Positions 8,177-50,530 of a stretch of 64,000 bases of DNA are shown here, piece after piece. This DNA is from Candidatus Omnitrophota bacterium (lineage in GTDB: Bacteria; Omnitrophota; Gorgyraeia; Zapsychrales; Zapsychraceae). Below the pieces are notes generated by a model, which saw nothing but the letters and a program-made list of their open reading frames with translations, was not told the origin of the DNA and searched no databases. The stretch spans positions 31,811 to 95,810 of the forward strand of contig JAIORP010000178.1 in NCBI GenBank assembly GCA_021108075.1, given 5' to 3'. Within the stretch, counting starts at the first letter, position 1. Every line of letters begins with the position of its first letter. A program made the translations under genes and the position numbers.

Positions 8177-9266
8177 AATTTTATTGGATTCACCGAATGT
8201 GGGAGAACTTGAGAAGAAATACTTGAATGATGCCGTTGATTCGGGCTTTGTCTCAACATATGGACCGTATGTGACGGATTTTGAGAACCGGATCGCTGAA
8301 TTGCTCCATGTGCCCTGTACCGTTGGGCTTCAAAGTGGAACCGCCGCATTGCATATTGCTTTATATGAATGTGGTATCGGTCCCGGGGATGAAGTTATTA
8401 TCCCCGCGATAACGTTTGCCGCCACAGCGCATGCTGTTCTTTATGTCGGGGCAACACCTGTTATTGTTGATGTGGAATCTGATACCTGGTGCATTTCTCC
8501 TTCTGCCACTGAATCCGCGATAACGAGTCAGACGAAAGCGGTTATACCCGTTCACCTTTATGGCAATCCCTGTGATATGGGGAGGATGACCCAAATTGCG
8601 CAGGCCAACAATTTTTTTATTATTGAAGATGCTGCTGAAAGTTTAGGATCAAAATATCAGGGTCAGTATACAGGCACATTAGGTGATTTGGGATGTTTAA
8701 GCTTTAACGGCAATAAGACCATAACATCTGCAAGTGGGGGAATGATCGCGCTTAAAGATCCAAAAAGAGCGGAGCACATTCGATATTTAATAAATCAGTC
8801 CAATCCGGGCTATGGATTCGATAACCATGGAGAAATCGGTTATAACTACCGCCTGACAAATTTATCGGCAGCGATGGGTTTAGCCCAGGTTGAGCGGGTT
8901 CATTCGTTTCTAAACAAAAAAAAGGATTTTTTTCAAATATATAAAAAACATCTTTCCGGAATGCCGGATGTATTCTTCCAGGCCGAATATCCTGGCGCTG
9001 AGAATTCATATTGGCTGACAGCGATATTGTTGCCATTTCATCAGGATGTTGATCGAGTTATTCATCAATTAAAAGACAAGAATATTCCTGCCCGACGTTT
9101 TTTTAATCCATTAAATACTTTTAAGTTTATGTCCGGTTTCTGCCAGGGAACATTAAAGAATGCCAATGACATCTACGCGCGCGGAATATGCTTGCCGTCA
9201 TCAACCCTGAATGAGGCTGAAGGGATTGAGCACGTCTGTGATGTTTTAAAGGAGCTGATTACGTGA
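8169..9266 (+). CDS. DegT/DnrJ/EryC1/StrS-family PLP-dependent sugar aminotransferase
   Basis: Fold-type I aminotransferase layout with SFNGNKTITSASGG lysine region; 365 aa; 4-bp overlap with both neighbours. Confidence 0.8.
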   Translation: MFKILLDSPNVGELEKKYLNDAVDSGFVSTYGPYVTDFENRIAELLHVPCTVGLQSGTAALHIALYECGIGPGDEVIIPAITFAATAHAVLYVGATPVIVDVESDTWCISPSATESAITSQTKAVIPVHLYGNPCDMGRMTQIAQANNFFIIEDAAESLGSKYQGQYTGTLGDLGCLSFNGNKTITSASGGMIALKDPKRAEHIRYLINQSNPGYGFDNHGEIGYNYRLTNLSAAMGLAQVERVHSFLNKKKDFFQIYKKHLSGMPDVFFQAEYPGAENSYWLTAILLPFHQDVDRVIHQLKDKNIPARRFFNPLNTFKFMSGFCQGTLKNANDIYARGICLPSSTLNEAEGIEHVCDVLKELIT

Positions 9267-9901
9267 AAGAGAATATTATTTTAGTTGGCGGGGGAGGGCA
9301 TTGCCGGTCCTGTATTGATGTTATCGAGCAGCAAGGCCGTTACGCGATTTATGGCATCATCGATGGCAAAGAGAATATCGGTCAAGAGGTTTGCGGTTAT
9401 AAAATGATCGGATCTGATCAAGATATCCCCCATTATATGACAGAGTGCCCGAATTTCATTGTTACTGTCGGGCAAGTAAAGGGCGGTTCGAGAAGGAAAG
9501 ATTTATTTGAGATGCTCAAGGTCCACAAAGCGAATGTGCCTGTTATCATATCGCCGTTAGCGCGCGTATCCCCTGACGCTCAATTAGGTGAAGGCACGAT
9601 CATTATGCATCATGCCCTCGTCAATCGAAGGGCGGTGATCGGGTGCAACGCCATCGTGAACACAAAAGCGTTAATTGAACATGATGTTCGTCTGGGAGAC
9701 CATGTTTGCGTTTCCACGGGCGCGATCATTAATGGAGAGTGTGATATCGGACATCATGTTTTTATCGGCAGCGGCAGTGTCGTGAACCAATGTGTTTCCG
9801 TTGTTGATGGCACCGTGCTTGGGTCAGGCGCGGTTGTTGTGAGAGATATTGTTCAGCCAGGGACTTATGTGGGCTGCCCCGCAAGGAGGTTGCGTGTATG
9901 A
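9263..9901 (+). CDS. NeuD/PglD-family sugar N/O-acetyltransferase (left-handed beta-helix)
   Basis: N-terminal ILVGGGGHCRSCIDVIE Rossmann-like region followed by hexapeptide repeats; 212 aa. Confidence 0.7.
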   Translation: MKENIILVGGGGHCRSCIDVIEQQGRYAIYGIIDGKENIGQEVCGYKMIGSDQDIPHYMTECPNFIVTVGQVKGGSRRKDLFEMLKVHKANVPVIISPLARVSPDAQLGEGTIIMHHALVNRRAVIGCNAIVNTKALIEHDVRLGDHVCVSTGAIINGECDIGHHVFIGSGSVVNQCVSVVDGTVLGSGAVVVRDIVQPGTYVGCPARRLRV

Positions 9902-10896
9902 ATGACCATGTCTACATTATCGCGGAAGCCGGGGTAAACCATAATGGGGATATGACGCTCGCTAAAGAAATGATTGATGTTGCTTCAGATTGTGGTGTTG
10001 ACGCGGTGAAATTTCAATCCTTTAATGCGGATTGTTTGGTCACACCACAAGCGCCAAAAGCGGAATATCAACAAGCGGACGTGAACAGTACCCAATACGA
10101 AATGTTAAAGAAATTGGAGTTGTCTGAAGATCAGACGGGTCTGTTAGCCGATCATTGTCAGACCAAACAGATCGATTTCATTTCGAGTCCGTTTGATATG
10201 GAAAGTTTGCGGATGCTTAGCTCAATGCCCTTGCGTATTTTGAAGATACCGTCGGGAGAAATAACAAATTTGCCGTATTTGCGGTTGGCCGGAAGATCGC
10301 GTAAAAGAATCATATTATCAACGGGGATGTCCACCCTCGATGAGGTTCAAACCGCTTGTGATATTTTGTTTCAAGCGGGTACAGCCAAAAAGGATATTAT
10401 TGTCTTGCAGTGTAATAGCGCGTACCCTTCGCCGGATCATGATGTGAATTTACGCGCCATGCTTTCGATGAAAGAATGTCTGGACCTGGAGGTTGGCCTT
10501 TCCGACCATACCCCTGGCATTGACATTGCTTTGGCAGCCGCGGGCATGGGCGCAAAAGTGATTGAGAAGCATTTCACGCTTGATCGAAATTTTAGCGGAC
10601 CGGACCATAAAGCCTCAATCGAACCGGATGAGTTAAAATTTTTAGTTCAGGGGATACGCCGGGTGGAAAAGGCCTTGGGCTCCTCTCAAAAGGCCCCGTC
10701 ACCATCGGAGAAAAAGAATATCAGCATTGTCCGCAAAAGCATTGTTGCCCTTCGAGACATCAAAAAGGGTGAAACGTATTCGGATCAGAATTTAACCACC
10801 AAAAGGCCGGCCTTTGGGCTGTCTCCGATGCGGTGGGATGATGTTGTCGGGGCAGTCGCTAATCGGGATTATAAAAAGGATGAGTTTATCGAATGA
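9898..10896 (+). CDS. neuB: N-acylneuraminate (nonulosonic acid) synthase, NeuB family with C-terminal SAF domain
   Basis: IIAEAGVNHNGD start, KFQ, LSDHTPG, EKHFTLD motifs and C-terminal SAF-like region; 332 aa. Could be a legI/pseI-type paralog rather than strict neuB. Confidence 0.8.
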   Translation: MNDHVYIIAEAGVNHNGDMTLAKEMIDVASDCGVDAVKFQSFNADCLVTPQAPKAEYQQADVNSTQYEMLKKLELSEDQTGLLADHCQTKQIDFISSPFDMESLRMLSSMPLRILKIPSGEITNLPYLRLAGRSRKRIILSTGMSTLDEVQTACDILFQAGTAKKDIIVLQCNSAYPSPDHDVNLRAMLSMKECLDLEVGLSDHTPGIDIALAAAGMGAKVIEKHFTLDRNFSGPDHKASIEPDELKFLVQGIRRVEKALGSSQKAPSPSEKKNISIVRKSIVALRDIKKGETYSDQNLTTKRPAFGLSPMRWDDVVGAVANRDYKKDEFIE

Positions 10897-12077
10897 TGAA
10901 AAGGATTTGTTTCATCACAGGATCCAGGGCTGAATATGGGTTGCTCCACGCGTTGATGAAGAACGTTGAGGCGGAGCCGGATTTCGAGTTGCAGATTATA
11001 GCGACAGGCGCGCATTTCTCGCCCGGTCTCGGTCGTACCTATTTAGAAATTGAAGCGGATGGCTTTGCTATCGATGAAAAAGTGGATATTCCATTGCCAA
11101 AGACGTCAGCGGCCATGTTAACCTATGTCGCTAACGCTGTTGATCAGACAGGTCATGCGCTTCAGCGCCTGCAACCGGATTTGGTTATTGTTTTGGGTGA
11201 CCGTTATGAAATATTTGCGGCTGCCTCGGCGGCGTGTTTACTGAAAATTCCTCTCGCGCATATACATGGCGGCGAGCTGACAGAGGGCGCCATCGATGAT
11301 GTGTTCCGGCATTGTGTGACCAAGATGAGTCATTTGCATTTTGTGTCAGCGGATGAATACCGGCGAAGAGTCATTCAGCTTGGCGAGAACCCTGATAGCG
11401 TTTATAATGTCGGAGCGCTTGCGATTGACAATATCAAAAACATGCCGTTATTAGCCAAACAAGATTTGGAAAATGATCTGAATCTCGCTTTTGACAGGCA
11501 GGTTTTACTTGTAACGTTTCACCCGGAGACATTATCGGATATATCGGTGTCTGAACAATGTCAAATTATGTTAGACGCCCTGGATACGTTTAAGGACGTG
11601 ATAATGATTTTTACAAAAGCCAATGCTGATCAGGGGGGAGATGTTGTCAATCACATGCTTGAGACATATGCCGCAAAGCGTCCGGCGGATAGAAAAGTAT
11701 TCGCTTCATTGGGTTGCCTGCGCTATCTGTCTTTTTTACAGTATGTTGATGGTGTTGTCGGTAATTCGTCAAGCGGGATCATTGAGGTCCCGTCATTTCA
11801 CATCGGAACAGTCAATGTCGGGGATCGGCAAAAAGGCCGGATAAGGGCGGACAGCGTTGTTGATTGTCCGTTTGATAAGGACAGGATCTGCCAGAGCATA
11901 CAAAAGATATTAAGTCCCGCGTTTAAAGACGGGATCAAGACAATGGCCAATCCGTATGGAGACGGATCGACCGGTGGTCGTATACTGGATGTTCTTAAGA
12001 CGTCTCATTTTAAAAATTTAACATTAAAGTCTTTTTTTGATTGTAAATTCGATAATAAGGAAGAGGTCTGGAAATGA
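10893..12077 (+). CDS. neuC: UDP-N-acetylglucosamine 2-epimerase (hydrolysing), NeuC/LegG family
   Basis: ICFITGSRAEYGLL N-terminus and HIHGGE motif; 394 aa. Confidence 0.8.
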   Translation: MMKRICFITGSRAEYGLLHALMKNVEAEPDFELQIIATGAHFSPGLGRTYLEIEADGFAIDEKVDIPLPKTSAAMLTYVANAVDQTGHALQRLQPDLVIVLGDRYEIFAAASAACLLKIPLAHIHGGELTEGAIDDVFRHCVTKMSHLHFVSADEYRRRVIQLGENPDSVYNVGALAIDNIKNMPLLAKQDLENDLNLAFDRQVLLVTFHPETLSDISVSEQCQIMLDALDTFKDVIMIFTKANADQGGDVVNHMLETYAAKRPADRKVFASLGCLRYLSFLQYVDGVVGNSSSGIIEVPSFHIGTVNVGDRQKGRIRADSVVDCPFDKDRICQSIQKILSPAFKDGIKTMANPYGDGSTGGRILDVLKTSHFKNLTLKSFFDCKFDNKEEVWK

Positions 12078-13462
12078 AGGTTTTATTAGTCGTCTATGAT
12101 AACGATTCCTATGTTTGTTGGTTTCCTCAAGGCTTAGGGTACATCGCGTCTATCTTATTAAAAGAAGGTTATGAGGTCGAAGTGTATAATCAGGACATCC
12201 ACCATTATCCGGATGAACATTTAACGGATTTTTTAAACAAGAATCATTTTGATGTCATTGCCGTGAGTGTTATCGCGGGATATTACCAATACCGGAAACT
12301 TTTATCCTTATCAAAAGCCATCAATACCGCGCGAGACCGTCCTTTTTATATGATCGGTGGCCACGGCCCGGCTCCTGATCCGGCGCATTTTTTTAAGAAG
12401 ACCGGAGCGGATGTGATCGTGATCGGTGAAGGGGAAGATACAATAAAAGAATTATTCGCATGTTTGGGATCGGGTCAAAGCTTGAAAGATGTTAAGGGTT
12501 TGGCCTATCAGAGTGATGGACAGATGGTTATGAATGAACGCCGCGATCTCATCAAGGACGTCGATAGCATTCCCTGGCCGGCCTATGATTTGTTTCCCAT
12601 CGACCATTACAAATTATTAAGGATGCCGAATTGCTCTAGCCGTGATTTTGTCATGCCTGTTTTATCCGGACGGGGCTGTACGTTTAAATGCAACTTTTGT
12701 TACCGTATGGATAAGGGTTTTCGGCCGCGGAGCAATGAAAGCATTATTGACGAGATCAAATATCTTAAAAAAGAATTCGGTATTACGTATATCGCTTTCT
12801 CTGATGAATTATTAATGTCATCGGTCAGTCGGACCGTATCCCTTTGCGAAGCATTTTTAAAAGCGGACTTAAATGTGAAATGGGATTGCAATGGGCGTTT
12901 AAATTACGCGAGGCCGGACATGTTAAAAGTGATGAAGCGGTCAGGATGTGTCTTTATAAACTATGGCATCGAAGCGGTCGACGACCAAGTTTTGAAGAAC
13001 ATGAATAAACATTTAACCGTTGAGATGATTATTAAAGGAATTGAAGCGACTTTAAAAGAAAGCATCAGTCCTGGTTTTAATGTTATCTGGGGCAACCTCG
13101 GTGATAATCTCGACACCTTAAATAAAGGCGTTGAATTTTTACTAAAATATGATGACAGCGTTCAATTGCGTAATATCCGCCCTGTGACGCCATATCCCGG
13201 TTGTGAGCTTTATGATATCGCCATTGAAAGAGGACTTGTCAAAGACATTGAAGATTTTTATGAAAACAAACATGTGAATTCTGATTTGCTGGCCGTTAAT
13301 TTCACCGATCTGAGTGACAAAGAATTTCATAAGGCTTTGTACGATGCGAATAAACGGTTATTAAATAATTATTTTGATAAGAAAAAAGCTTCCTATATCA
13401 AGCAATCTTATGATTTATATGTGGGCGGAAACACCAACTTTCGTGGTTTTCGTCACACTTAG
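12074..13462 (+). CDS. B12-binding-domain radical SAM enzyme (class B; candidate C-methyltransferase/modifying enzyme)
   Basis: N-terminal B12-binding-like Rossmann region then CTFKCNFC (CxxxCxxC) cluster; 462 aa. Confidence 0.7.
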   Translation: MKVLLVVYDNDSYVCWFPQGLGYIASILLKEGYEVEVYNQDIHHYPDEHLTDFLNKNHFDVIAVSVIAGYYQYRKLLSLSKAINTARDRPFYMIGGHGPAPDPAHFFKKTGADVIVIGEGEDTIKELFACLGSGQSLKDVKGLAYQSDGQMVMNERRDLIKDVDSIPWPAYDLFPIDHYKLLRMPNCSSRDFVMPVLSGRGCTFKCNFCYRMDKGFRPRSNESIIDEIKYLKKEFGITYIAFSDELLMSSVSRTVSLCEAFLKADLNVKWDCNGRLNYARPDMLKVMKRSGCVFINYGIEAVDDQVLKNMNKHLTVEMIIKGIEATLKESISPGFNVIWGNLGDNLDTLNKGVEFLLKYDDSVQLRNIRPVTPYPGCELYDIAIERGLVKDIEDFYENKHVNSDLLAVNFTDLSDKEFHKALYDANKRLLNNYFDKKKASYIKQSYDLYVGGNTNFRGFRHT

Positions 13463-13477: not shown

Positions 13478-14329
13478 ATGAAAAATATCCGTGTTATTCC
13501 TAGAATTGATATTAAAGGACCCAATCTCGTCAAAGGGATTCACTTAGAAGGGTTGCGCGTTTTAGGCAAGCCCGAAGATTTTGCCCGCTATTATTATGAG
13601 CATGGCGCGGATGAGCTTATTTATATGGATATCGTCGCCAGCCTGTATGGCCGCAACAGTCTGCGTGATATTATCGAAAAAACCGCCCGGGAAATATTTA
13701 TTCCCTTTACCGTCGGTGGAGGGATTCGAACGCTTGAAGATATTCGTGCCATATTACGCGCGGGAGCGGACAAAGTGTCGGTCAACACAGCCGCTATTAA
13801 GGACGCCAACATGATCAGGGAGGCCGCGCGGAAATTTGGTTCGTCGACGATTGTCATTTCGATCGAAGCGATCAAAGAGCCTGACGGCCGGTATTTGGCA
13901 TATACTGATTGCGGACGGGAACATACAGGAATTGAAATTGTCGCGTGGGCAAAAAAAGTTGAAGACCTTGGCGCCGGAGAAATTTTTTTAACGTCGGTTG
14001 ATAAAGATGGCACAGGTGAGGGGTATGACATTGAACTTATACGCCGTGTTTCAGAAACGGTATCCATTCCTGTGATCGCTTACGGCGGGGCAGGTAATTG
14101 TGAAGATATTGTTAATGTGATTAAGGATGGAAAGGCGGACGCGGTCAGCATGTCATCTGTTCTTCATTACGGCGTGATTGGAAATAAGGCCCTGGATGAG
14201 AGCAGTTTCCAGAGTGAGGGTAATATCACTTATTTGAAAAGCGGCAAGGTGTTTTCAAAGATTGAACCGCATACCATTGAATCGATAAAGAATTCTTTAA
14301 AAGCAAGCGGTATTATGTGCCGGCATTGA
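13478..14329 (+). CDS. HisF-like cyclase subunit (WbuZ-like) of imidazole-glycerol-phosphate-synthase-type amidotransferase
   Basis: RVIPRIDIKG ... VKG start and GGGI phosphate-binding motifs characteristic of HisF; 283 aa. Confidence 0.8.
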   Translation: MKNIRVIPRIDIKGPNLVKGIHLEGLRVLGKPEDFARYYYEHGADELIYMDIVASLYGRNSLRDIIEKTAREIFIPFTVGGGIRTLEDIRAILRAGADKVSVNTAAIKDANMIREAARKFGSSTIVISIEAIKEPDGRYLAYTDCGREHTGIEIVAWAKKVEDLGAGEIFLTSVDKDGTGEGYDIELIRRVSETVSIPVIAYGGAGNCEDIVNVIKDGKADAVSMSSVLHYGVIGNKALDESSFQSEGNITYLKSGKVFSKIEPHTIESIKNSLKASGIMCRH

Positions 14330-14344
14330 TCAAAGGAAGGGGAT

Positions 14345-14977
14345 ATGAAGGCCGTTGTTGTTGATTATCATATGGGAAATTTATTCAGTGTGAGACAGGC
14401 CTGTGAGCAAGTCGGTTTTGAGAGTGTGATTTCATCGAAGAAAGAAGATGTTGATCACGCGGATGCCATTATCCTGCCCGGCGTCGGGGCTTTCGGGGTT
14501 GCGATGGAACATTTGAAAAAGAATGATTTGGTCGATGTCTTAAAGAGAAATATTGAACAGAAAAAACCGTTCTTGGGTGTCTGCCTCGGATTTCAGCTTT
14601 TAATGGATAGAAGCACGGAATTTGGTGAATATGAAGGGTTAGGCGTTTTTCGCGGAAGTGTTAAAAAATTTCCCGCGCGGGTGAGAAAAATTCCGCATGT
14701 GGGTTGGAATACCCTGCGCGTTAATGAAGGAAACGCGTCATGCTCCCGGGTCTTTAAGGACATCGGTTATGACGAATATTATTATTTTGTGCATTCATAT
14801 TATGTCGACACGCGAGAAGATGTGCTGACGACGACCGATTATGAGGGGTTTTCTTTTTGTTCGGCTATTGCTAAAGATCATATTTGGGGACTGCAATTTC
14901 ATCCCGAGAAAAGCGCCCGGCAAGGATTAAAGCTTTACGAGAATTTTTTTCAATATGTGAAAGGTATAAATAGATGA
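14345..14977 (+). CDS. HisH-like glutamine amidotransferase subunit (WbuY-like)
   Basis: GVCLGFQLL catalytic Cys motif and HPEKS; 210 aa. Confidence 0.8.
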   Translation: MKAVVVDYHMGNLFSVRQACEQVGFESVISSKKEDVDHADAIILPGVGAFGVAMEHLKKNDLVDVLKRNIEQKKPFLGVCLGFQLLMDRSTEFGEYEGLGVFRGSVKKFPARVRKIPHVGWNTLRVNEGNASCSRVFKDIGYDEYYYFVHSYYVDTREDVLTTTDYEGFSFCSAIAKDHIWGLQFHPEKSARQGLKLYENFFQYVKGINR

Positions 14978-16185
14978 ATACTGAAGTGTTAGAAGTTAAA
15001 TACGGATTGCCGCGTGACGTGAAGTTTTGTGCGAAATGCGTGATATCCAATCAACGCCCGGCTTCAAGTGTGGAGTTTAAACACAGCAGATCCAAAAAAC
15101 ACCGGACGATGAATTTTGATGACCGGGGCGTTTGTGATGCTTGCCGTGTCGCTGAAACAAAAGAGAATATCGATTGGGCTGAACGTGAAGAAGAATTGCT
15201 ACGGTTGTTAGAACAGTACCGCAGCAAAGATGGTTCGTATGATTGTATCGTGCCCGGCAGCGGGGGCAAGGATAGTGTTTATGCCGCGCATGTTTTGAAG
15301 TATAAATACGGCATGCATCCTTTGACCGTCACGTGGGCCCCGATGATGTATACGGACTACGGTTACCAGAATTTTCGTAACTGGATCGAAATAGGCGGGT
15401 TTGATAACCTCAGCTTTAATCAAAACGGACGGGTCATGAAATTGTTGACCAGGCTGTCGATTGAAAATTTATTGCATCCGTTCCAAACATTTATTTTAGG
15501 CCAAAAGAATATCGCTCCCAAACTGGCGTTGAAATACGAAATTCCTTTAATCTTTTATGGTGAAAGTGAAGGTGAGTACGGCAACCCCATCGCCGAAACA
15601 CAAACAGCATTAAGGGACCGTTCGTATTACACGATGAACAATTTAGATGAGATATATTTAGGCGGGGTCTCGATCCCGGAGCTTTTAGAGAAGCATGATG
15701 TTGAGCTTGTGGATCTCATGGCCTTCTTGCCCCCCAATCATAAAGAAGTTGAAAGGAAGAAAATTGACGTGCATTATTTGGGGTATTATTTAAAATGGCT
15801 TCCGCAGGAAGTTTATTATTACTCCGTCGAGCATGTTAATTTTAAAGCGCGTCCATTTCGCAGTCAGGGAACATACAGCAAATACAATAGCATTGATGAC
15901 AAAATTGATGATCTGCATTATTATACAACCTATATTAAATTCGGGATAGGCCGGGCGACTTATGATGCCTCACAAGAAATCAGGAACAAACATTTAACGC
16001 GTGAAGAAGGTGTCGCGCTCGTGCATAAATTCGATGGTGAGTTTCCTGACCGGTATTTTAAAGAAGTCATGGCGTATCTAGATATGAACCCGGAGCGGTT
16101 CTTAGAACTTTGTGATCAGGCCCGCTCGCCGCATTTATGGATGAAAGATGGAAGTGAATGGAAACTAAAATACAGGGTGTCTTAA
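14974..16185 (+). CDS. N-acetyl sugar amidotransferase (WbuX / PseA-like, PP-loop ATP pyrophosphatase)
   Basis: PP-loop VPGSGGKDS; 403 aa; sits directly after the HisF/HisH pair. Confidence 0.75.
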   Translation: MNTEVLEVKYGLPRDVKFCAKCVISNQRPASSVEFKHSRSKKHRTMNFDDRGVCDACRVAETKENIDWAEREEELLRLLEQYRSKDGSYDCIVPGSGGKDSVYAAHVLKYKYGMHPLTVTWAPMMYTDYGYQNFRNWIEIGGFDNLSFNQNGRVMKLLTRLSIENLLHPFQTFILGQKNIAPKLALKYEIPLIFYGESEGEYGNPIAETQTALRDRSYYTMNNLDEIYLGGVSIPELLEKHDVELVDLMAFLPPNHKEVERKKIDVHYLGYYLKWLPQEVYYYSVEHVNFKARPFRSQGTYSKYNSIDDKIDDLHYYTTYIKFGIGRATYDASQEIRNKHLTREEGVALVHKFDGEFPDRYFKEVMAYLDMNPERFLELCDQARSPHLWMKDGSEWKLKYRVS

Positions 16186-16189
16186 AATT

Positions 16190-17266
16190 ATGGATATAGA
16201 CAGCAATATAAAAAAATTATTTATCAATGGTACGATTTCTTTAAAAGAGGCCATGAAGAAAATCAGCAAAGAAGGACAGGGTGTTCTCATTGTGGTGGAC
16301 GGCCAATCAATGTTAATGGGAATGTTAACGGATGGAGACATTCGCCGGGCGATATTATCCGGTCATCCTTACAGCGACGCGATTGACGGTATTTATAATG
16401 ATCATCCGCACTTTGTATCAGAGCCTACTTCACATGAACAGATTCGAAACATTATGCTGCAGGACCGGATTGAGGCCGTTCCTGTCGTTGATGATAATAA
16501 GCGCATTATAGATGTTGTTTTCTGGGATGATATCATCAGTGAAACGGTTCAAAGGCCTAAACGGAAACTGAATGTTCCGGTCGTGATTATGGCTGGAGGG
16601 AAAGGGACCCGTCTGGACCCTTTCACGAGAATTTTGCCAAAATTGCTTATACCCATCGGAGAAAAAGCGATTATCGACATTATTATCGACAAATTTGCTT
16701 TTTATGGAATCACACAATTTTATATATCCATCAATAACAAAGCTAAAATTGTGAAAGCTTATTTTGAAGAGAGATATTCTGATTATCATTTGCATTATTT
16801 AGAAGAAACCAGGCCTTTAGGAACGGCCGGGAGTTTGAAGGCTTTACCACGGAAGTTCAAGGGTTCTTTTTTTGTGTCAAACTGTGACATTATTGTTGAT
16901 TGTGATTATTCGGATATTTACGGTTTTCATTGTGAGAAAAATAATGATATAACGATTGTCGGCTCTCACCGGCATTTTGTGATCCCCTACGGCGTCTGTG
17001 AGATCAAGAACGGTGGCACATTGAAATCTATCAATGAGAAGCCGGAATATGATTTTTTAGTGAATACAGGCATGGTTGTTCTTAAGCGGAGTGTTTTGAA
17101 ATATATCCCGAGAAATAAAGAATTTCATATGACTGATTTAATTTCCTCTGTGCAGCAAAAAGGCGGGAAGGTGGGCGTTTATCCGATTGATGAAAAATCC
17201 TGGATTGATGTCGGGCAGTGGGATGAATATAAGAAGGTCATGGAAAACTTCGAGAAAAAGTTATGA
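16190..17266 (+). CDS. CBS-pair + sugar-phosphate nucleotidyltransferase (PtmE-like guanylyl/nucleotidyl-transferase)
   Basis: N-terminal CBS region, then VVIMAGGKGTRL nucleotidyltransferase motif; 358 aa. Architecture matches C. jejuni PtmE. Confidence 0.75.
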   Translation: MDIDSNIKKLFINGTISLKEAMKKISKEGQGVLIVVDGQSMLMGMLTDGDIRRAILSGHPYSDAIDGIYNDHPHFVSEPTSHEQIRNIMLQDRIEAVPVVDDNKRIIDVVFWDDIISETVQRPKRKLNVPVVIMAGGKGTRLDPFTRILPKLLIPIGEKAIIDIIIDKFAFYGITQFYISINNKAKIVKAYFEERYSDYHLHYLEETRPLGTAGSLKALPRKFKGSFFVSNCDIIVDCDYSDIYGFHCEKNNDITIVGSHRHFVIPYGVCEIKNGGTLKSINEKPEYDFLVNTGMVVLKRSVLKYIPRNKEFHMTDLISSVQQKGGKVGVYPIDEKSWIDVGQWDEYKKVMENFEKKL

Positions 17267-18204
17267 GAGTCTGTCTATTTGGGTTAGGGTCGATTGGTCG
17301 ACGGCATGCCAAGCTGTTATCCCAGTTTGATGCTATTGATCTGGTTGCTTTTCGTACAGGAAAAGGACAACAAAAAAATGGTTCAGGTGTGCCTGAAATT
17401 TTTTCATGGGATGAGGTGAAAGAGTTCCACCCGGATATCGCTGTCATATCTAATCCAACTTTTTTACATATTGACACAGCCTTGCTTTGTGCTGAGATGG
17501 GGATGCACTTGTTTATTGAGAAGCCTATTGACGTTTCGGTAAGACGTTTAAAAGAATTAACACGAATTGTTTCGGATAAGGATTTATTAACGTATGTCGC
17601 TTATGTCTTGAGGTTCCATCCTGCGATCAAGTATATAAAGGATCAACTGCAATCTCATCAAGTATTAAATGTTTCCGTGCGGTCTTCATCCTATTTGCCT
17701 GATTGGCGCCCGGGTTTTAATTATAAGGAGATGTTTTCTGTGAGAAAAGATCAGGGTGGCGGAGTTATCCTGGATTTGTCCCATGAATTTGATTATATTC
17801 AATATTTGTTTGGATCGATTGAAACAATGGAGGGGAAGTTCGGTCAGGCTTCCAATATAACCATCGACGCGGAAGATTATTGTGACGCCATTATTCGGAC
17901 GGAAAACTGTCCAAGCATCAATTTGCATCTTGATTATTTCAGCCGGTATGCCGAGCGGTATTTGAAAATAGATGTGGCCGGAGGGGCCTTTATGGTGGAC
18001 CTGATAAAAAGCACGGTTGAATGGCATCATGACGGGCGTGTTGACAGGAAGGATTTCCCGTTTGAACGTGATGACATATACAGGGAACAATTGGAACTTT
18101 TTATGGATCATGTTAAACAGGGTCGGCCGATGAGTAACAATCTTGAAGAAGCTTCCGTGTTGTTCGAAAAAATAATCGCATTCAAGGAAAGAGGGTCCCT
18201 GTGA
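17263..18204 (+). CDS. Gfo/Idh/MocA-family oxidoreductase (PtmF-position)
   Basis: VCLFGLGSIGRRH and FIEKP motifs; 313 aa. Confidence 0.7.
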   Translation: MRVCLFGLGSIGRRHAKLLSQFDAIDLVAFRTGKGQQKNGSGVPEIFSWDEVKEFHPDIAVISNPTFLHIDTALLCAEMGMHLFIEKPIDVSVRRLKELTRIVSDKDLLTYVAYVLRFHPAIKYIKDQLQSHQVLNVSVRSSSYLPDWRPGFNYKEMFSVRKDQGGGVILDLSHEFDYIQYLFGSIETMEGKFGQASNITIDAEDYCDAIIRTENCPSINLHLDYFSRYAERYLKIDVAGGAFMVDLIKSTVEWHHDGRVDRKDFPFERDDIYREQLELFMDHVKQGRPMSNNLEEASVLFEKIIAFKERGSL

Positions 18205-18917
18205 ACGTATTAGCCACCATAGCGGCGCGGGGCGGATCAAAAGGAGTTCCCGGTAAAAACATTAAGGAATTGCTGGGAAGACCGCTGATCGCCTATACCA
18301 TTGAACAGGCCGTAGCCTGTGATTTTATCGACAGGGTTGTCTGTTCCACGGATTCTGAGGAAATTTTAGACATCGCTAAACAATATGGCGCTGAAGGGCC
18401 GTTCATCAGGCCCCTTGAACTGGCACAAGATTCTTCCGCGAAATTGCCTGTTATTCAACACGCGGCGCGTTATTATATCGACCGTATGGGTTTTGTTCCT
18501 GATGTTATTATTGACCTGGACCCGACATCGCCTTTGCGTGCCATTGATGATATCAAGAAATGTTTTGATGTTTTGCTCTCAGACGAGGATTGTGACACGG
18601 TTATCACCGGATACCTCGCCCGCAAAAATCCATATTTTAACATGGTTGAAGACACCGGCGACGGATATGTTCAGGTGTGTAAAGGTGATGGTTTGGTTGT
18701 CTCCCGCCAGTCAGCACCGACGGTATATTCGATGAACGCCTCCATTTACGCCTGGCGGACAGAGGACCTGTTTAAACTGGATAATGTGCTGAGGGGCCGG
18801 ACGCGTATCGTTGAAATGCCCTATGAGTCGTCTGTTGATATTGACAGTTTATTTGATTTTAAGACAGTTGAATTTTTAATGAAAGAAAAGGGGAATCATG
18901 GGATTGGATCGTTTTAG
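18201..18917 (+). CDS. Acylneuraminate cytidylyltransferase family (PtmB/LegF-like CMP-sugar synthetase)
   Basis: IAARGGSKGVPGKNI motif; 238 aa; GTG start. Confidence 0.75.
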   Translation: MNVLATIAARGGSKGVPGKNIKELLGRPLIAYTIEQAVACDFIDRVVCSTDSEEILDIAKQYGAEGPFIRPLELAQDSSAKLPVIQHAARYYIDRMGFVPDVIIDLDPTSPLRAIDDIKKCFDVLLSDEDCDTVITGYLARKNPYFNMVEDTGDGYVQVCKGDGLVVSRQSAPTVYSMNASIYAWRTEDLFKLDNVLRGRTRIVEMPYESSVDIDSLFDFKTVEFLMKEKGNHGIGSF

Positions 18918-19683
18918 TTTAAAAGATAAAATTGCTGTCGTAACAGGCGGGGCAGGTTTACTTGGATCAGCCATGTGTCAGCTTTTTGCTGAAGCGGGCG
19001 CGAAAGTTTATATCGCGGAATTTGATCAGGATAAAGCGCGAATATTAAAAGAAGACATCCTTAAACAAGGCAACCAGGCAGAGTTTGTCTTTTTGGATAT
19101 CACGCAAGAGGAATCGGTTGAACAATGTATCAACAGCATTGCCTCGCAGGACGAGCGGATTGATATCTGGGTGAACAATGCTTATCCGCGGACGCCTGAT
19201 TGGGGTGATAAATTTGAAAATGTTAAGATCGATTCTATCCGGAAAAATGTTGACGCGCATATGAATGGTTATTTTATGTGTTGCCAGAAAGTATTGTTGC
19301 GGATGAAAACCGCCGGGGGAGGGACTGTCGTTAATATCGGTTCGCATTATGGCGTGCTGGGCCCGAATTTCAGTGTTTATGACGGCACTGAGATGACCAT
19401 GCCGGTGGCCTATTCAATGATAAAAGGCGGTATTGTTAATTTAACGCGCTATTTAGCCACATACTTTGCGAAAGATAATATTCGCGTTAATACCGTTTGT
19501 CCGGGTGGTGTTTTTGACTCTCAGCCTTCCGCTTTTGTCCAACGTTACAATGACAAGGTCCCTTTGGGCCGTATGGCAAATCCGGATGAGATTGCCAACA
19601 GCGTCTTGTTTCTAGTGTCAGACGCGGCCTCTTACATCACGGGGCAAACACTAATGGTTGATGGGGGCTTATCAATCTGGTAA
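18898..19683 (+). CDS. SDR oxidoreductase (PtmA-like)
   Basis: VTGGAGLLG, NNAY, YSMIKGG (YxxxK); 261 aa; similar to the 3745..4578 paralog. Confidence 0.75.
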   Translation: MGLDRFSLKDKIAVVTGGAGLLGSAMCQLFAEAGAKVYIAEFDQDKARILKEDILKQGNQAEFVFLDITQEESVEQCINSIASQDERIDIWVNNAYPRTPDWGDKFENVKIDSIRKNVDAHMNGYFMCCQKVLLRMKTAGGGTVVNIGSHYGVLGPNFSVYDGTEMTMPVAYSMIKGGIVNLTRYLATYFAKDNIRVNTVCPGGVFDSQPSAFVQRYNDKVPLGRMANPDEIANSVLFLVSDAASYITGQTLMVDGGLSIW

Positions 19684-21484
19684 TCCAATGAACAAACAGA
19701 AGATTTTTTTAATATCTCCGATATCCTTCTTATCTAAAACATTTTATTCATTTCTTAAGAAGTTTAACTACGACGTTTACTGTAGAGGTCGATTTGATAA
19801 GGACGTTTTAAGTGATACGGCTAATGATCATTATGATCAAGCTAGCGACGCGTTTCGCGCGTTTACGGATGACCATATTCAGCAAGACAGAATTAAAGCT
19901 ATTGCCGAAAAATATGGCTTAGATCCAACCTGTTTAGGTAAATTTTCTCGAGATGTCATGATGAGTGTTTGGCACTTTGATTTTTGTTTTACGTTTACTG
20001 CTGTCAAGAAGTTTGCCTCTTCAAACGCGATTATCGGATTTGTCAGTTATCCTCCAACCTGGTGGAAGTCATTAGAAGATATCCTCGGATACAAAACAAA
20101 TATTTTTTTCTCTGCGATCTTAATGTTTGAAAGACGATGTCGTATCTTTGTCAAATCGACACTAAAAATGATTTTATTTAGCATAAAATTATTGTCTTGG
20201 CTTTTTTTAAGATCTAAAGAAAATTATGGATATTGGCAACAAAATTATATTTGGCTCTCAGGTGATAAGAAAAACGTTCTCACCCGGGATTCAAAGAAGA
20301 ATTCATTGCCCTGTTTCCTGTCACAATTAAGGGTTGAGGGGAAAATACAGCAAAAGTTCATAATCATTGCTCCCGCGTTAAAAAAAGATGAATGGTGGGA
20401 GGATGAGGATGTTGTTGCCAGAAGCAATGTTTGGGATTTCTTTCCTGATGTGTCTTTATCTGAAGTGGGGGGAATTCTTAAACAATTTTTTTATCTATAT
20501 ATTCATTTATTTTTTAATTTCTTTAGCTCTAAGCCGGATTTTGAAATATTAATTGCTCTTTTTGATTATATCTTTATTGGATTTGTACTTCAGAAGCTGG
20601 ATCCTAAAGCTGTTTTATATTCTCAATCGACTTTTGGCGCGGGCAATAGTTTTGTTTACGCGAGTGCAGAGAAAAAGATTAAATCATTTCTTATTTATTA
20701 TGGGGCTTCAAATTTCAGGCCCGCCGTTGAATCCAAAGTGACGTATCAATTATTCACTAGCGAGTGCCAAAACGTTATCGCGGATCACATTTTTGTTTGG
20801 AATGAGCATACGAGAAAGCATTTTGAATCGATTGGTCGAGAAAAAAATGTTCATATTGTTGGAACTCAAATATTTTCACCGTGTTATCCGTTAAATCATT
20901 TTAAACCTAATACCAGATTTACAATAGGTGTATTCTTCGGGGTGCCGTTTGCCAAAGAACACATTTACCGAATGGGCCTGGGCAACTATTTCCATGATGT
21001 TTCTTATTGCGCGGAGTTTTGGCGCAGCTTATTCTCTGTGGTATCGAAAGTCTATCAGGAACAATTCATGTTTTTGGTTAAATTAAAAATTCGGGGGAAT
21101 AATCAGAAGCACTATGATACCTGGTTTCGTTCGTTGAAAAAAGAATATCCTTTCTTTGATGACGTCGTTCAGATCTGTTCAGAGACTGAGAATTTATGGG
21201 ATCTTGTTCAACGCACGGATTGCTGCGTCTCAACAGCTTTAAGCTCTGCGGCATGTGTTCCGCTTGATTTTGGCATTCCTTCAATTCATTATGATCAGGC
21301 GGGCATCGTTAAACCGATTGATAATCTTGGCATTCCCTTACTTTGCGATGAAAATTTTTTGATTCAATGGTTTCGAGACCTTAGAAATGGGCGTATAAAA
21401 AAGTATAAGATTGATGGAAAAAAATTTGATCTAGGAGCCGTCTCATTAGCCCGAATGTTGAATTTAATCATGTCTGAAAGCTAA
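19658..21484 (+). CDS. Hypothetical protein, 608 aa; possible glycan-modifying transferase (Maf-like by size and context only)
   Basis: Long ORF in AT-rich DNA immediately after the ptm-like block; no motif I can name. Alternative start at 19688 (MNKQKIF). Confidence 0.4.
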   Translation: MMGAYQSGNPMNKQKIFLISPISFLSKTFYSFLKKFNYDVYCRGRFDKDVLSDTANDHYDQASDAFRAFTDDHIQQDRIKAIAEKYGLDPTCLGKFSRDVMMSVWHFDFCFTFTAVKKFASSNAIIGFVSYPPTWWKSLEDILGYKTNIFFSAILMFERRCRIFVKSTLKMILFSIKLLSWLFLRSKENYGYWQQNYIWLSGDKKNVLTRDSKKNSLPCFLSQLRVEGKIQQKFIIIAPALKKDEWWEDEDVVARSNVWDFFPDVSLSEVGGILKQFFYLYIHLFFNFFSSKPDFEILIALFDYIFIGFVLQKLDPKAVLYSQSTFGAGNSFVYASAEKKIKSFLIYYGASNFRPAVESKVTYQLFTSECQNVIADHIFVWNEHTRKHFESIGREKNVHIVGTQIFSPCYPLNHFKPNTRFTIGVFFGVPFAKEHIYRMGLGNYFHDVSYCAEFWRSLFSVVSKVYQEQFMFLVKLKIRGNNQKHYDTWFRSLKKEYPFFDDVVQICSETENLWDLVQRTDCCVSTALSSAACVPLDFGIPSIHYDQAGIVKPIDNLGIPLLCDENFLIQWFRDLRNGRIKKYKIDGKKFDLGAVSLARMLNLIMSES

Positions 21485-21661
21485 AAGCTGACTTTTGTAT
21501 TGGTATAAAAGGGTTCTTTATGCAATGCATTGACATTTGATCAGATTCTAATAGAATATATTAAATCTTATTAAATATAAATTTTTTATATAGTAATTCT
21601 TTTAATAATTATATTAATATACTACAATTTGTATAATTTTTAGCGAAAAAGGAGGCGTGCG

Positions 21662-22390
21662 ATGAGCGAAGATAAGATTTTTGCAGATGATAAAGAAAAA
21701 ATAAATGATTTTGAGTTTGGAGAAGAGACAGCCCAAGTATTTGATGACATGTTGGATCGCAGTGTTCCGCTTTATCGCGAATTACAACGCATGATCGGTG
21801 AAATCGCGAATGAATTTGCCCAATCGGATACGAATATTGTTGATTTGGGGTGTTCAACCGGTATCACGCTTTTAACATTAAATAAAATGGTAGAGAAGAA
21901 TGTGAAGTTGATAGGTGTCGATTATTCACAGGCTATGCTCGATAAATGTAAAAAGAATTTGATAAAGGGTCATGTTAAAAAAGAATATGAATTTTTATGC
22001 CGCGACCTGAATAATGGCTTGGTCATAAAGAATGCATCTGTCGTTGTTTTGAATTTAACCCTTCAATTTATTCGTCCGCTTCAAAGAGATCTGCTGATTC
22101 AACATATTTACAATGGTTTGGTTGATAACGGATGTTTAATTTTAGTTGAGAAAGTCTTGGGGAATGATTCGGTTTTTAATCGGACATTTATTCAATTTTA
22201 TTATGATATGAAACAACGGAATGGTTATTCGGAGTTGGAGATTGCCCAGAAGCGTGAAGCATTGGAAAATGTGCTAATACCGTATCGAATGAGTGAAAAT
22301 GATCAAATGTTGCATCGTAATGGGTTTAGATACATGGATATTTTTTATAAGTGGTACAATTTTTATGGTGTGATAGCAATGAAAATGTAA
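21662..22390 (+). CDS. CmoA-like carboxy-S-adenosyl-L-methionine synthase homolog (class I SAM MTase fold)
   Basis: Near-colinear similarity to E. coli CmoA blocks: FDDMLDRSVPLY, VDLGCSTGITLL, NASVVVLNLTLQFIRP, NGYSELEIAQKREALENVL; 242 aa; strong AAAGGAGG RBS upstream. Confidence 0.65.
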   Translation: MSEDKIFADDKEKINDFEFGEETAQVFDDMLDRSVPLYRELQRMIGEIANEFAQSDTNIVDLGCSTGITLLTLNKMVEKNVKLIGVDYSQAMLDKCKKNLIKGHVKKEYEFLCRDLNNGLVIKNASVVVLNLTLQFIRPLQRDLLIQHIYNGLVDNGCLILVEKVLGNDSVFNRTFIQFYYDMKQRNGYSELEIAQKREALENVLIPYRMSENDQMLHRNGFRYMDIFYKWYNFYGVIAMKM

Positions 22391-22399
22391 AGGAGATTT

Positions 22400-23560
22400 A
22401 TGTTTGTTAACTCTACAAGCCAGAAAGAAGTTGAACAGGACATTGATTCTTTTATAAAAGATCAACACACACAAGGTGATCGAAATCGTTTATCCGCTAA
22501 ATTAAAAGGCGTCAAAATATGTGATACGGATCGCGAAAAGCGACTATTAAAGGTTATTCAGCAGGATCTGCATATATTAGAACGCATTGATGTGTCTGGA
22601 ATTCCCGGGGAATTGGATATTAAGTGGAAAAAATTAACAACAAGCGAACCGAACCGTTTTTTGAATGAGGACCGTTCTCCTAAGGCGGATGTTTTACGTA
22701 ATTTTAGAAAATTATCGATATTCATACCAGATGTGCCAACCTGTGACTTATCCGGGACTAATCCTATTAATATTGTTAGCGGTGGACGTCGAGGTGCGAG
22801 AAAACTCTTGTGTGAAAATTTAGAAATGCTTAAAGATAGGAAATGTCTTGATCTTTTGAAAAAATATCCTGTCAGCCGTATTGGAAACCCGAACGTTTTT
22901 ATTAAAGAAGGGTATGAATACACACATCGATGGACAAAGCATATATACTCATTGAGTTTATTTAAAAAGTATTTGGAGTCAGAATTAACAAATGATTTTG
23001 TTTTATTGGATTTGGGGTCAAGCTATGGGATTTTTTCCTATTTGATTAAGAAAGAGTATCCGAAAACAACACATATTCTGGTAGATTTTCCTGAACAACT
23101 AACGTTGGCCCATTATTTTTTAGGGATGAGTTTCCCTGAAGCAAAAATCGCGACAGTATCCGATCTAAAAGACATAGCTGCTTTGACAAATAACACTATA
23201 TCAGAGTATGATTTCCTTTTAGTCCCATGGTTTTATTATGATAAGTTAAGGTCGATCAAGATTGATGTGTATGCTAATTTTGCTTCTTTGGGAGAAATGC
23301 GGAGGGAATGGTTTGATTTTTATCTGAGTCATCCTGTCTTTAAATCTGCGAAGTGTTTGTTTATGATGAATAGTTTTATGTCAGGACAGGTTTATGATAA
23401 TGATTTAACTTTTTTAGATTATCCTTTTCGTGATTTTGATCAGTTGTATTTAGGGATTTGGCCCTATTCCCACTATACTTATGATAAAAAGCAGTTTTTT
23501 TTCTATGAAAAAGTTTGTTTCGCCTCCCAATATTTTGAATATATCGGCAAGAGAAAATGA
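22400..23560 (+). CDS. Hypothetical protein with methyltransferase-like fold (LDLGSSYGI motif); candidate partner of the CmoA-like enzyme
   Basis: 386 aa; glycine-rich LLDLGSSYGIFSYL then acidic VDFPE; no further recognisable motifs. Confidence 0.4.
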   Translation: MFVNSTSQKEVEQDIDSFIKDQHTQGDRNRLSAKLKGVKICDTDREKRLLKVIQQDLHILERIDVSGIPGELDIKWKKLTTSEPNRFLNEDRSPKADVLRNFRKLSIFIPDVPTCDLSGTNPINIVSGGRRGARKLLCENLEMLKDRKCLDLLKKYPVSRIGNPNVFIKEGYEYTHRWTKHIYSLSLFKKYLESELTNDFVLLDLGSSYGIFSYLIKKEYPKTTHILVDFPEQLTLAHYFLGMSFPEAKIATVSDLKDIAALTNNTISEYDFLLVPWFYYDKLRSIKIDVYANFASLGEMRREWFDFYLSHPVFKSAKCLFMMNSFMSGQVYDNDLTFLDYPFRDFDQLYLGIWPYSHYTYDKKQFFFYEKVCFASQYFEYIGKRK

Positions 23561-44036: not shown

Positions 44037-44045
44037 CCGTCATTT

Positions 44046-45470: not shown

Positions 45471-45473
45471 GAT

Positions 45474-46640: not shown

Positions 46641-46712
46641 TGACCAAAACCAATTCTGCTGTTCAGAATTAAGATAGAACAATTTATTAATGGATTTGGT
46701 ATTACCAGAACG
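46641..46712 (-). repeat. Promoter/operator repeat element, inverted (minus-orientation) copy, upstream of the 46743 gene
   Basis: The reverse complement of 46641..46706 reads ATACCAAATCCATTAATAAATTGTTCTATCTTAATTCTGAACAGCAGAATTGGTTTTGGTCA. Confidence 0.75.
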
Positions 46713-46742
46713 TTATGAATAAAAAAATATCGCAATAATATT

Positions 46743-48188: not shown

Positions 48189-48389
48189 TGAAACACACTG
48201 TTAAAAATCAGGTAACGATACAGGTCTCACCCGGTCCAAAGATCCGGAAAACGCTCATTGACAAAAATTGTATTTATTTTTTGACGATACGAGAAAATAA
48301 TGTTTAAGTATTATTCATGAAAGAGACAACATCAGAAGAAGCCCGCGTGAATTAATCTTTATTTATGAACGATTCGATCAGGCCTGGGC

Positions 48390-48910: not shown

Positions 48911-49111
48911 CCGGAATAGTTACATATAAAGAAAGTCTTCCCGATCATGCATCCTGAAACCACCTTTGCCAGAAAGTGTGTCGACTTGTATTCAGATAGC
49001 TGCAAAAAATAGTTGAAGGGAATGATCGGGACGAAGAAGGCTGTTTTTTAGATTAACGTTTATTTTATATTTATTACAGGAGTTTATTTGTGCTGGCGAA
49101 TCATCGTGTTT

Positions 49112-50454: not shown

Positions 50455-50530
50455 TTCAGTGACTTCTGATAATCTGCTGGTTCTGTGATAACACGTTTCA
50501 GGAGTGCCGTTAAATAAAAGATGATGCTAA

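Follow-up and report, generated by a model that had tools for sequence, protein, structure and literature searches.

A GT-B-fold PFTS_polysacc protein as a candidate CMP-ulosonic-acid transferase beside a legionaminic-type gene cluster in Omnitrophota

We analysed 64,000 nt of the Omnitrophota contig JAIORP010000178.1 (assembly GCA_021108075.1, positions 31,811–95,810; this whole stretch is hereafter the window, and coordinates count from its first letter), concentrating on a block of five open reading frames (ORFs) at 16190–21484. The last of these encodes a 598-aa protein, which we assign with high confidence to a rare, divergent branch of the PFTS_polysacc family (PF27878, related to TIGR04417) with a GT-B fold. 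The genes preceding it (7172–19683) very probably encode a Campylobacter-type pathway, proceeding by way of guanosine diphosphate (GDP) sugars, for a legionaminic-type sugar activated with cytidine monophosphate (CMP). We consider it rather probable that the 598-aa protein transfers a CMP-activated ulosonic acid, a role for which we infer donor, acceptor, catalytic residues and activity alike; that the pathway and the protein form one system, with the protein as the transferase of the pathway's own product, is a reading we favour only slightly.

Results

A divergent PFTS_polysacc protein with a predicted GT-B fold

All five ORFs of the block were found on the plus strand where the original prediction had placed them, and neighbouring genes overlap or abut, consistent with a single transcription unit. 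The last gene had been read as encoding 608 aa; this ORF is real, being the maximal reading from a TTG at 19658 that overlaps the end of the short-chain dehydrogenase (SDR) gene, but the true start is most likely the ATG at 19688, 4 bp past the SDR stop codon. The resulting 598 aa equal the length of the deposited protein K8S27_13860 (hypothetical, Candidatus Omnitrophica bacterium).

Proteins of the window were scored with Pfam and NCBIfam models, using curated NCBIfam cut-offs, and the 598-aa protein was additionally scanned at relaxed thresholds (Pfam E ≤ 10, NCBIfam E ≤ 1). At these thresholds the local NCBIfam copy returned no match and the local Pfam copy none beyond a chance match to Catalase-rel. 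Precomputed public annotation nevertheless assigns the protein to PF27878 (PFTS_polysacc), so that it does carry a nameable family signature, contrary to the earlier statement that no motif could be named. Searched with HMMER, 1.84 billion representative proteins yielded 86 relatives (E ≤ 1e-3). Only four of these are full length (22–29% identity); about 80 share just the C-terminal core (residues ~270–570). Among the aligned relatives, 74 of 76 match TIGR04417 ('polysaccharide biosynthesis PFTS motif protein'), and in phmmer searches the 598-aa protein itself reaches TIGR04417 members at E values from 1.7e-13 to 1e-3 (against 1.84e9 sequences). Its relatives P0002, the closest, and P0003 score 54.6 and 80.9 bits with this model, the cut-off being 100. 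NF046086 ('BFO_1060 family glycosyltransferase') matches two of the 76 relatives at E 1.3e-5 and P0003 at 0.021, and does not match the 598-aa protein. The protein falls in a rare subclade of ~600-aa members that carry an additional N-terminal region; of the five known members, P0001, which is the window protein, and P0003 are annotated as Omnitrophota. A metagenome scan with the subclade alignment yielded a single short locus, and tblastn against plasmids found nothing for the 598-aa protein or for a classical PFTS protein.

Structure prediction with AlphaFold 2 was unusable without an alignment (predicted local distance difference test, pLDDT, 37), whereas the 76-sequence alignment gave a model with pLDDT 91.1 and a predicted template modelling score (pTM) of 0.91. 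By fold-library matches, the model is of the GT-B type, with two Rossmann-like domains and an interdomain cleft. No single structure stands out among the matches: TagF, TarL and many GT4 enzymes fit about as well as transferases for 3-deoxy-D-manno-octulosonic acid (Kdo) or sialic acid. The model establishes a predicted GT-B fold, and not a donor class. In the C-terminal Rossmann domain of the model, a conserved K-x-K-R comes after the second strand, and P-F-T-S lies at the N-terminus of the helix after the fourth strand. Such positions are the usual phosphate contacts of GT-B enzymes, and both sites would be expected to contact phosphate here. The protein is basic (isoelectric point 8.9) and has no convincing transmembrane helix, which suggests that it is probably peripheral.

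The 598-aa protein keeps Y338, W371, K465, K467, S520 and D536. Its PFTS motif (residues 517–520) reads A-L-S-S, with proline at the first position in 73 of the 76 relatives; furthermore, residue 417 is phenylalanine (Asp or Glu in 74/76) and residue 468 isoleucine (Arg in 71/76). Loss of D417, R468 and P517 may mean that the activity or the donor of this protein differs from that of other members.

Phe417 occurs in only two of the 76 sequences, P0001 and P0002, the loci of both of which carry PtmE and WbuX genes, and both lack Arg468 (Ile and His, respectively). Since the two changes are shared only by the window protein and its closest relative, they are correlated and not random decay, and may reflect a changed donor specificity or the loss of a salt bridge.

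PFTS genes in ulosonic-acid loci

We compared the neighbours of PFTS genes with the window proteins in loci from isolate or metagenome-assembled genomes (MAGs; L008–L013) and metagenome contigs (L003, L015, L017, L018, L019). Twelve loci, the window included, were usable, with flanking sequence of ~8 kb or more to one side. NeuB homologues occur in nine of the 12, immediately adjacent to the PFTS gene in L009, L010, L013, L017 and L019 and as a near neighbour in L015. A set comprising an HpcH aldolase and a KdsB-like CMP-synthetase is found in five (the window, L008, L011, L012 and L018), and one or both of the two signatures in 11. The twelfth locus, L003, belongs to the closest relative, P0002, and there a PtmE homologue (47% identity) adjoins the PFTS gene, accompanied by a WbuX fragment. 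The PFTS genes of P0003 and P0088 adjoin a DegT aminotransferase and NeuB. Guilt by association thus points to a CMP-activated ulosonic acid as the common denominator of the family, and the presence of ulosonic-acid genes at all these loci is the strongest argument for a candidate nonulosonic acid (NulO) transferase.

Other recurrent neighbours are B12-radical-SAM enzymes (L003, L015), DUF4910/DUF2172 proteins, PglK-like ABC transporters and a ~600-aa TIGR04326-like protein. In several unrelated loci, namely L006/L007 (420–1721), L017 (8709–10007), L019 (52–1371) and L015 (3350–4753), the PFTS gene is immediately preceded by the DUF4910/DUF2172 (M28-peptidase-like) gene, which is absent from the window. 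Sulfation genes accompany PFTS and NeuB genes in L003 (535–4290: sulfotransferase, ATP sulfurylase and adenosine 5'-phosphosulfate (APS) kinase), and an APS kinase with a sulfatase-family protein does so in L017 (17161–19346) and L019 (5212–7406), which hints at sulfated ulosonic-acid glycans at these three loci. A NanM-like gene adjoins the PFTS gene in L013.

A probable legionaminic-type pathway upstream

The four genes at 16190–19683 (Table 1) have the domain content and order ptmE-ptmF-legF-ptmA, as the original prediction had claimed from comparison with Campylobacter jejuni, and their Pfam matches are, by profile comparison, far beyond chance. Models are lacking for PtmE and PtmF, and these two assignments rest on domain architecture and gene order. 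The nearest Protein Data Bank (PDB) relatives of the PtmE-like protein are sugar-1-phosphate nucleotidylyl- and guanylyltransferases, in line with a putative glucosamine-1-phosphate guanylyltransferase; those of the PtmF-like protein are generic dehydrogenases only. The LegF-like protein has CMP-N-acetylneuraminic acid synthetases as top PDB relatives (E 1e-26) and scores 124.4 with the PseF model (cut-off 205.7). The PtmA-like SDR exceeds the cut-off of NF006619 (269.6 against 255), with the C. jejuni-based equivalog NF050062 second best (179, below 350). The adjacency PtmA-LegF-PtmF-PtmE-LegH-LegI-LegG has been reported in legionaminic clusters of Plesiomonas, Vibrio fischeri and E. coli (PMC4481668), and the PtmE-PtmF-LegF-PtmA order of the block agrees with these published clusters. 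In C. jejuni, PtmE, PtmF, LegF and PtmA carry the consecutive UniProt accessions Q0P8S9–Q0P8S6 (bioRxiv 10.64898/2026.04.20.719630).

The NeuB, NeuC, DegT and NeuD homologues that had been noted upstream are real by both Pfam and NCBIfam. TIGR03570, TIGR03568 and TIGR03569, which the NeuD, NeuC and NeuB homologues match, do not discriminate Leg from Neu enzymes. The LegB-type dehydratase exceeds its cut-off; TIGR04181 is the best model of the LegC-like aminotransferase, at 373.3 bits below the cut-off of 420. The pseudaminic equivalogs all stay far below their cut-offs: PseB 74.3 (407.75), PseC 240.9 (423.5), PseI 272.1 (340.25) and PseF 124.4 (205.7), and no match to the NCBIfam PseG or PseH models was found among the scanned pathway proteins. 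The original prediction had proposed a legionaminic or pseudaminic type over plain N-acetylneuraminic acid; the legionaminic half of this is sustained by LegB, the LegC-like protein and the NeuD/NeuB/NeuC homologues, and the pseudaminic half is disfavoured by the low Pse scores. The stereochemistry of the sugar is a matter of prediction, with the D-glycero-D-galacto configuration as the predicted product.

A B12-radical-SAM gene and a WbuZ/HisH/WbuX trio separate legG from the ptmE-like gene. The trio (WbuZ TIGR03572 282.5, below the cut-off of 299.7; HisH 222.1, above 105.4; WbuX TIGR03573 366.1, above 203.2) is most likely an N-acetyl-sugar amidotransferase system for the glutamine-dependent conversion of an N-acetyl to an acetamidino group, and its presence points to an acetamidino derivative comparable to the Leg5Am7Ac sugars of Campylobacter. 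The B12-radical-SAM enzyme, with sub-threshold NCBIfam matches only, may be a methyltransferase acting on the sugar. The product is probably an acetamidino derivative and possibly methylated as well. In Campylobacter, modifier genes are likewise embedded among the legionaminic pathway genes (bioRxiv 10.64898/2026.04.20.719630). This biosynthetic block is an ordinary known pathway in an unusual phylum, and will not surprise a specialist.

Genes for glycan assembly

The block forms part of a glycan island of ~54 kb, which reaches to ~54.8 kb and is followed by housekeeping genes (pgk, tpiA, opp). The genes at 43119–54317 could build the acceptor. The ABC exporter at 5138–6958, whose top NCBIfam models, PglK (306.9 bits) and MsbA, both remain below cut-off, has five hydrophobic segments and is a candidate flippase for a lipid-linked glycan; its homologues lie directly downstream of the PFTS genes in L006, L010 and L013. 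No flagellar gene was seen among the annotated ORFs of the window, and the flagellin setting assumed by analogy with Campylobacter gives way to a set of genes for lipid-linked glycan assembly. These two observations together indicate that the target is likely a lipid-linked surface glycan, most likely an O-antigen-like chain, a capsule or a protein glycan; flagellin is unlikely.

Two polytopic proteins encoded among the glycosyltransferase genes, at 44046–45470 (474 aa) and 46743–48188 (481 aa), have eight and ten hydrophobic segments, respectively, and no Pfam or NCBIfam family. They are candidates for Wzy- or Wzx-like proteins of unrecognised families.

Gene boundaries and base composition

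The PFTS gene is followed by a 177-bp AT-rich gap, and the next gene has a strong ribosome-binding site, AGGAGG. The promoter-like site within this gap is the best of 47 sites at 6800–22500, judged by consensus match only, and suggests that the PFTS gene closes the legionaminic transcription unit. The GC content of the PFTS gene is 36.2%, compared with 34.7% and 34.6% in the two methyltransferase genes downstream and 39–49% in the legionaminic block.

The low-GC trio formed by these three genes (PFTS, CmoA-like and NanM-like, 19688–23560; 34.6–36.2%) lies between blocks of 39–49% and 43–51%, which suggests a mosaic, possibly serotype-specific module.

Table 1 Main features of the window (paired scores give bits, then curated cut-off).
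Feature	Position	Strand	Evidence
PglK/MsbA-type ABC exporter half-transporter, fused permease and ATPase	5138..6958	+	ABC_tran E 4.5e-32
LegB-type NAD-dependent 4,6-dehydratase	7172..8176	+	TIGR04180 497.6 bits, cut-off 475; PseB 74.3
LegC-like pyridoxal-phosphate aminotransferase	8169..9266	+	DegT_DnrJ_EryC1 E 5e-103; TIGR04181 373.3 bits
LegH-like NeuD/PglD-family N-acetyltransferase	9263..9901	+	PglD_N + Hexapep; TIGR03570 195.2 > 160.8
LegI/NeuB-type nonulosonic acid synthase	9898..10896	+	NeuB + SAF; TIGR03569 460.3 > 399.65
LegG/NeuC-type hydrolysing nucleoside-diphosphate (NDP)-sugar 2-epimerase	10893..12077	+	Epimerase_2 E 1e-86; TIGR03568 456.1 > 235.9
B12-binding radical-SAM enzyme	12074..13462	+	B12-binding + Radical_SAM; NCBIfam sub-threshold only
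WbuZ (HisF-like)/HisH/WbuX trio	13478..16185	+	NCBIfam scores (see text)
PtmE-like CBS + sugar-1-phosphate nucleotidylyltransferase, 358 aa	16190..17266	+	two CBS stretches; NTP_transferase E 7.6e-32
PtmF-like Gfo/Idh/MocA oxidoreductase, 313 aa	17263..18204	+	GFO_IDH_MocA N- and C-terminal domains
LegF/PtmB-like CMP-nonulosonate synthetase, 238 aa	18201..18917	+	CTP_transf_3 E 8.8e-22
PtmA-like SDR, 261 aa	18898..19683	+	adh_short_C2 E 3.8e-46
GT-B-fold PFTS_polysacc-related protein, 598 aa	19688..21484	+	PF27878 precomputed match; AlphaFold 2 model; HMMER relatives
Promoter-like site	21530..21557	+	TTGACA-16-TAGAAT, 11/12 sigma-70-like consensus positions
CmoA-like methyltransferase and NanM-like putative sugar O-methyltransferase	21662..23560	+	TIGR00740 251.6 > 193.3; TIGR04371 102.6 > 44
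GT2, GT4, GT2, WecG/TagA, Bac_transf phosphoglycosyl transferase, Wzy_C, two polytopic membrane proteins (no Pfam match)	43119..54317	+	Pfam

Other pathways and elements of the window

A second, apparently undescribed CMP-ulosonic-acid-like pathway occupies 23557–31934. It comprises genes for a Gfo/Idh/MocA protein, a methyltransferase, a SIS isomerase, a transaldolase/fructose-6-phosphate aldolase, an HpcH/HpaI-type aldolase, a HAD phosphatase, two SDRs, a KdsB-like cytidylyltransferase (PRK13368, 258.8 against 255) and a 2-hydroxyacid dehydrogenase, with the HpcH/HpaI-type aldolase in place of a NeuB/KdsA synthase. At 421–5126, a PseF-like CTP_transf_3 protein (127.5 bits, below cut-off) is encoded together with a methyltransferase, a xylose-isomerase-like TIM barrel (AP_endonuc_2), a Gfo/Idh/MocA protein, an SDR and a HAD protein, and the window thus holds three CMP-sugar synthetase (CTP_transf_3) genes. 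A pairing of NeuB with AP_endonuc_2 that resembles 421–5126 also stands beside the PFTS gene in L015.

The gene at 40041–41861 encodes a 606-aa protein with no Pfam match and a weak resemblance to TIGR04326 ('surface carbohydrate biosynthesis protein'; 51.6 against 250 bits), a family for which no functional study was found in the literature searched. BLASTP rejected it as a paralogue of the 598-aa protein; hhalign against the PFTS alignment gave a weak co-linear match over the C-terminal half (probability 31%, E 5e-4), and the protein may be a second uncharacterised GT-B-like transferase. Its homologues stand only a few genes away from PFTS genes in L003, L008 and L015.

A low-GC insert (31–39%) at 32297–38171 splits the glycan island. 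It encodes a C-5 cytosine DNA methylase, a protein of 376 aa that matches no family and an 875-aa TIR and STAND NTPase protein, and looks like a small defence island.

Discussion

In the mechanism that we propose, the PtmE/PtmF/PtmA-like enzymes would supply a GDP-hexosamine precursor, and LegB, LegC and LegH would form a 2,4-diacetamido-2,4,6-trideoxy-hexose nucleotide. LegG would release and epimerise the sugar, LegI would condense it with phosphoenolpyruvate, and the LegF-like protein would add CMP. WbuX/HisH/WbuZ most likely would convert one N-acetyl to an acetamidino group, and the B12-radical-SAM enzyme may methylate the sugar. The 598-aa protein would hold the CMP-ulosonic acid in its C-terminal Rossmann domain, with K465-x-K467 and S520 at the helix N-terminus binding phosphate or carboxylate, and would transfer the sugar to an undecaprenyl-phosphate-linked oligosaccharide at the cytoplasmic face of the membrane. 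The acceptor would be provided by the phosphoglycosyl transferase, WecG/TagA and the GT2/GT4 enzymes. The PglK-like ABC transporter would serve as exporter of the product, on which the Wzy_C protein would act as ligase or polymerase.

Several observations weigh against this proposal. TIGR04417 gives no match to the 598-aa protein at E ≤ 1; no functional study of the PFTS_polysacc family was found in the literature searched; and a profile search of PDB sequences with the PFTS alignment returned no match, leaving the family without a solved member. The substitutions D417F, R468I and P517A remove three of the most conserved residues of the family. The bacterial GT-B sialyltransferases are defined by HP and D/E-D/E-G motifs (PMC5420450), and the HP motif of GT38, GT52 and GT80 is absent from the 598-aa protein. 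The residue after the family-conserved His475, a histidine that the 600-aa subclade does not keep, is Tyr in this protein and Asp in the family consensus where the motif has Pro, and the acidic pair (D366-H367 here, D-E in many relatives) lacks the Gly of the D/E-D/E-G motif. Neither PgmL (phosphoglucosamine mutase) nor the GlmU-type acetyltransferase, both part of the Campylobacter route, was identified in the window. The remaining points bear on the donor: the GC content of the PFTS gene resembles that of the methyltransferase genes downstream and not that of the legionaminic block; the HpcH/KdsB-like pathway also lies downstream of the PFTS gene in the window, so its sugar could be the donor; and PFTS genes stand directly upstream of an HpcH/KdsB-like block in L008, L011 and L012 and just after it in L018.

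From these last points arises the main rival, which we judge unlikely: that the 598-aa protein is a CMP-ulosonic-acid transferase for another donor, the product either of the HpcH/KdsB-like pathway at 23557–31934 or of the genes at 421–5126. The downstream genes in L008, L011 and L012 are homologues of the window's transaldolase, HpcH, SDR, SDR, KdsB-like and 2-hydroxyacid dehydrogenase genes, L018 has HpcH and CTP_transf_3 without NeuB, and the window itself offers three CTP_transf_3 genes alongside the shared low GC content. The position of the PFTS gene speaks the other way: it begins 4 bp past ptmA, and the 177-bp gap with its strong promoter-like site sets it apart from the downstream block. 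So do the closest relatives, with P0002 next to PtmE and WbuX and P0003 and P0088 next to DegT and NeuB; moreover, the separate 606-aa TIGR04326-like protein could serve the other pathway. On this position and these neighbours we base the suggestion of a specifically legionaminic donor, which we advance tentatively, as falling just short of an even chance.

It is improbable that the protein is a GT-B enzyme that moves no ulosonic acid, whether a TagF/TagB-like phosphotransferase or polymerase or an NDP-sugar transferase that builds the acceptor or extends the ulosonic acid. TagF, TarL and many GT4 structures do fit the model about as well as Kdo and sialyl transferases, and the fold alone does not set the donor; however, genes for cytidine diphosphate (CDP)-glycerol or CDP-ribitol synthesis were not seen, the three cytidylyltransferases are of the NeuA/KdsB type, the family-wide link is to NeuB or to HpcH plus a CMP-synthetase and to no particular NDP-hexose pathway, and GT2, GT4 and WecG enzymes are already at hand for the backbone. 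Still more improbable is a non-transferase, be it a NeuC-like paralogue that hydrolyses or epimerises a nucleotide sugar or a scaffold protein without catalytic activity; GT4 enzymes and 2-epimerases fit the model as well as GT-B enzymes with CMP or CDP donors do. The original prediction had drawn on the place where Campylobacter carries Maf genes to propose a NulO transferase. The candidacy as such is strengthened by the GT-B fold and by the ulosonic-acid context of the family, while the kinship with Maf is lost: the analogy is positional only, resting on the place directly after the ptmA-like gene, and the Pfam scan at E ≤ 10 gave no match to PF01973 (MAF_flag10/DUF115/MptE-like). We reject the Maf reading of the 598-aa protein, which belongs to another family (PF27878) with a GT-B fold; given also a 64-kb window with lipid-linked glycan genes and no flagellar gene, a Maf-type flagellin transferase is barely credible.

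Biosynthesis of NulOs is well mapped, and the transferases that attach them are known in few systems (Maf, FlmG, the Tannerella enzymes and some capsule glycosyltransferases). As a GT-B family in ulosonic-acid loci across many phyla, PFTS is a concrete candidate to fill this gap, and a modest lead. If the proposal is true, NulO-decorated surfaces would become predictable from genomes, and new enzymes would be available for the glyco-engineering of legionaminic acid. More speculatively, and with doubt outweighing belief, PFTS_polysacc may be an unrecognised transferase family for CMP-ulosonic acids, both NeuB-derived and HpcH/KdsB-like products, in which the ~600-aa branch is a variant for acetamidino-legionaminic donors, marked by D417F and R468(I/H) and here also by loss of the PFTS proline, and contributes to a sialic-acid-like coat of Omnitrophota. 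Members of this phylum are uncultured, with very small cells reported, and possibly host-dependent; the three CMP-sugar pathways of the 54-kb island suggest that the surface is heavily decorated and possibly mimics a host.

Comparison with known systems

The pathway resembles that for CMP-legionaminic acid in C. jejuni (Cj1319–Cj1332; LegB/C/H/G/I/F, PtmE/F/A and the modifiers PtmG/PtmH) in its enzyme families, in the order ptmE-ptmF-legF-ptmA, and in having acetamidino genes and a possible methylating enzyme embedded among the pathway genes. It differs in its host, an Omnitrophota MAG; in its acetamidino machinery, which is WbuX with HisH and a HisF-like protein; in the presence of a B12-radical-SAM enzyme; in the below-cut-off equivalog scores of PtmA and LegC, with PgmL and GlmU not found in the window; and in lying inside a 54-kb surface-polysaccharide island without Maf genes or a flagellar context.

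With the PFTS_polysacc family, the 598-aa protein shares the precomputed PF27878 match, the core at 270–570, Y338/W371/K465/K467/S520 and the polysaccharide-locus context. It departs from the family in that TIGR04417 is below detection, the motif is ALSS, other residues take the places of D417 and R468, and ~600 aa include the extra N-terminal region. Its sequence identity to GT-B enzymes that use CMP or CDP donors, namely WaaA (GT30), KpsC (GT107), the polysialyltransferase SiaD/NeuS (GT38) and TagF/TarL, is only 9–15%, with no profile match to a PDB chain and no HP motif.

Cognate NulO transferases are little known, as the Tannerella study states (PMC5420450). In Tannerella forsythia, knock-out and complementation showed that Tanf_01245/TFUB4_00887 (BFO_1060 being the strain 92A2 orthologue) is required for the terminal pseudaminic or legionaminic acid derivative on the O-glycan; the transferase genes lie just downstream of the CMP-NulO locus, by a methyltransferase gene, and the sugar is put on N-acetylmannosaminuronic acid (ManNAcA) (PMC5420450). 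The 598-aa protein is unlike these GT-B/TagB-like NF046086 enzymes in lacking a match to that model, in being ~150 residues longer with a helical insertion, and in lacking the HP motif reported there. It is like them in being encoded as a GT-B protein just downstream of a CMP-NulO locus and next to a methyltransferase gene. Furthermore, the Tannerella enzymes cap a lipid-assembled glycan on ManNAcA, and the island of the window includes a WecG/TagA ManNAc(A) transferase, a parallel that is suggestive only.

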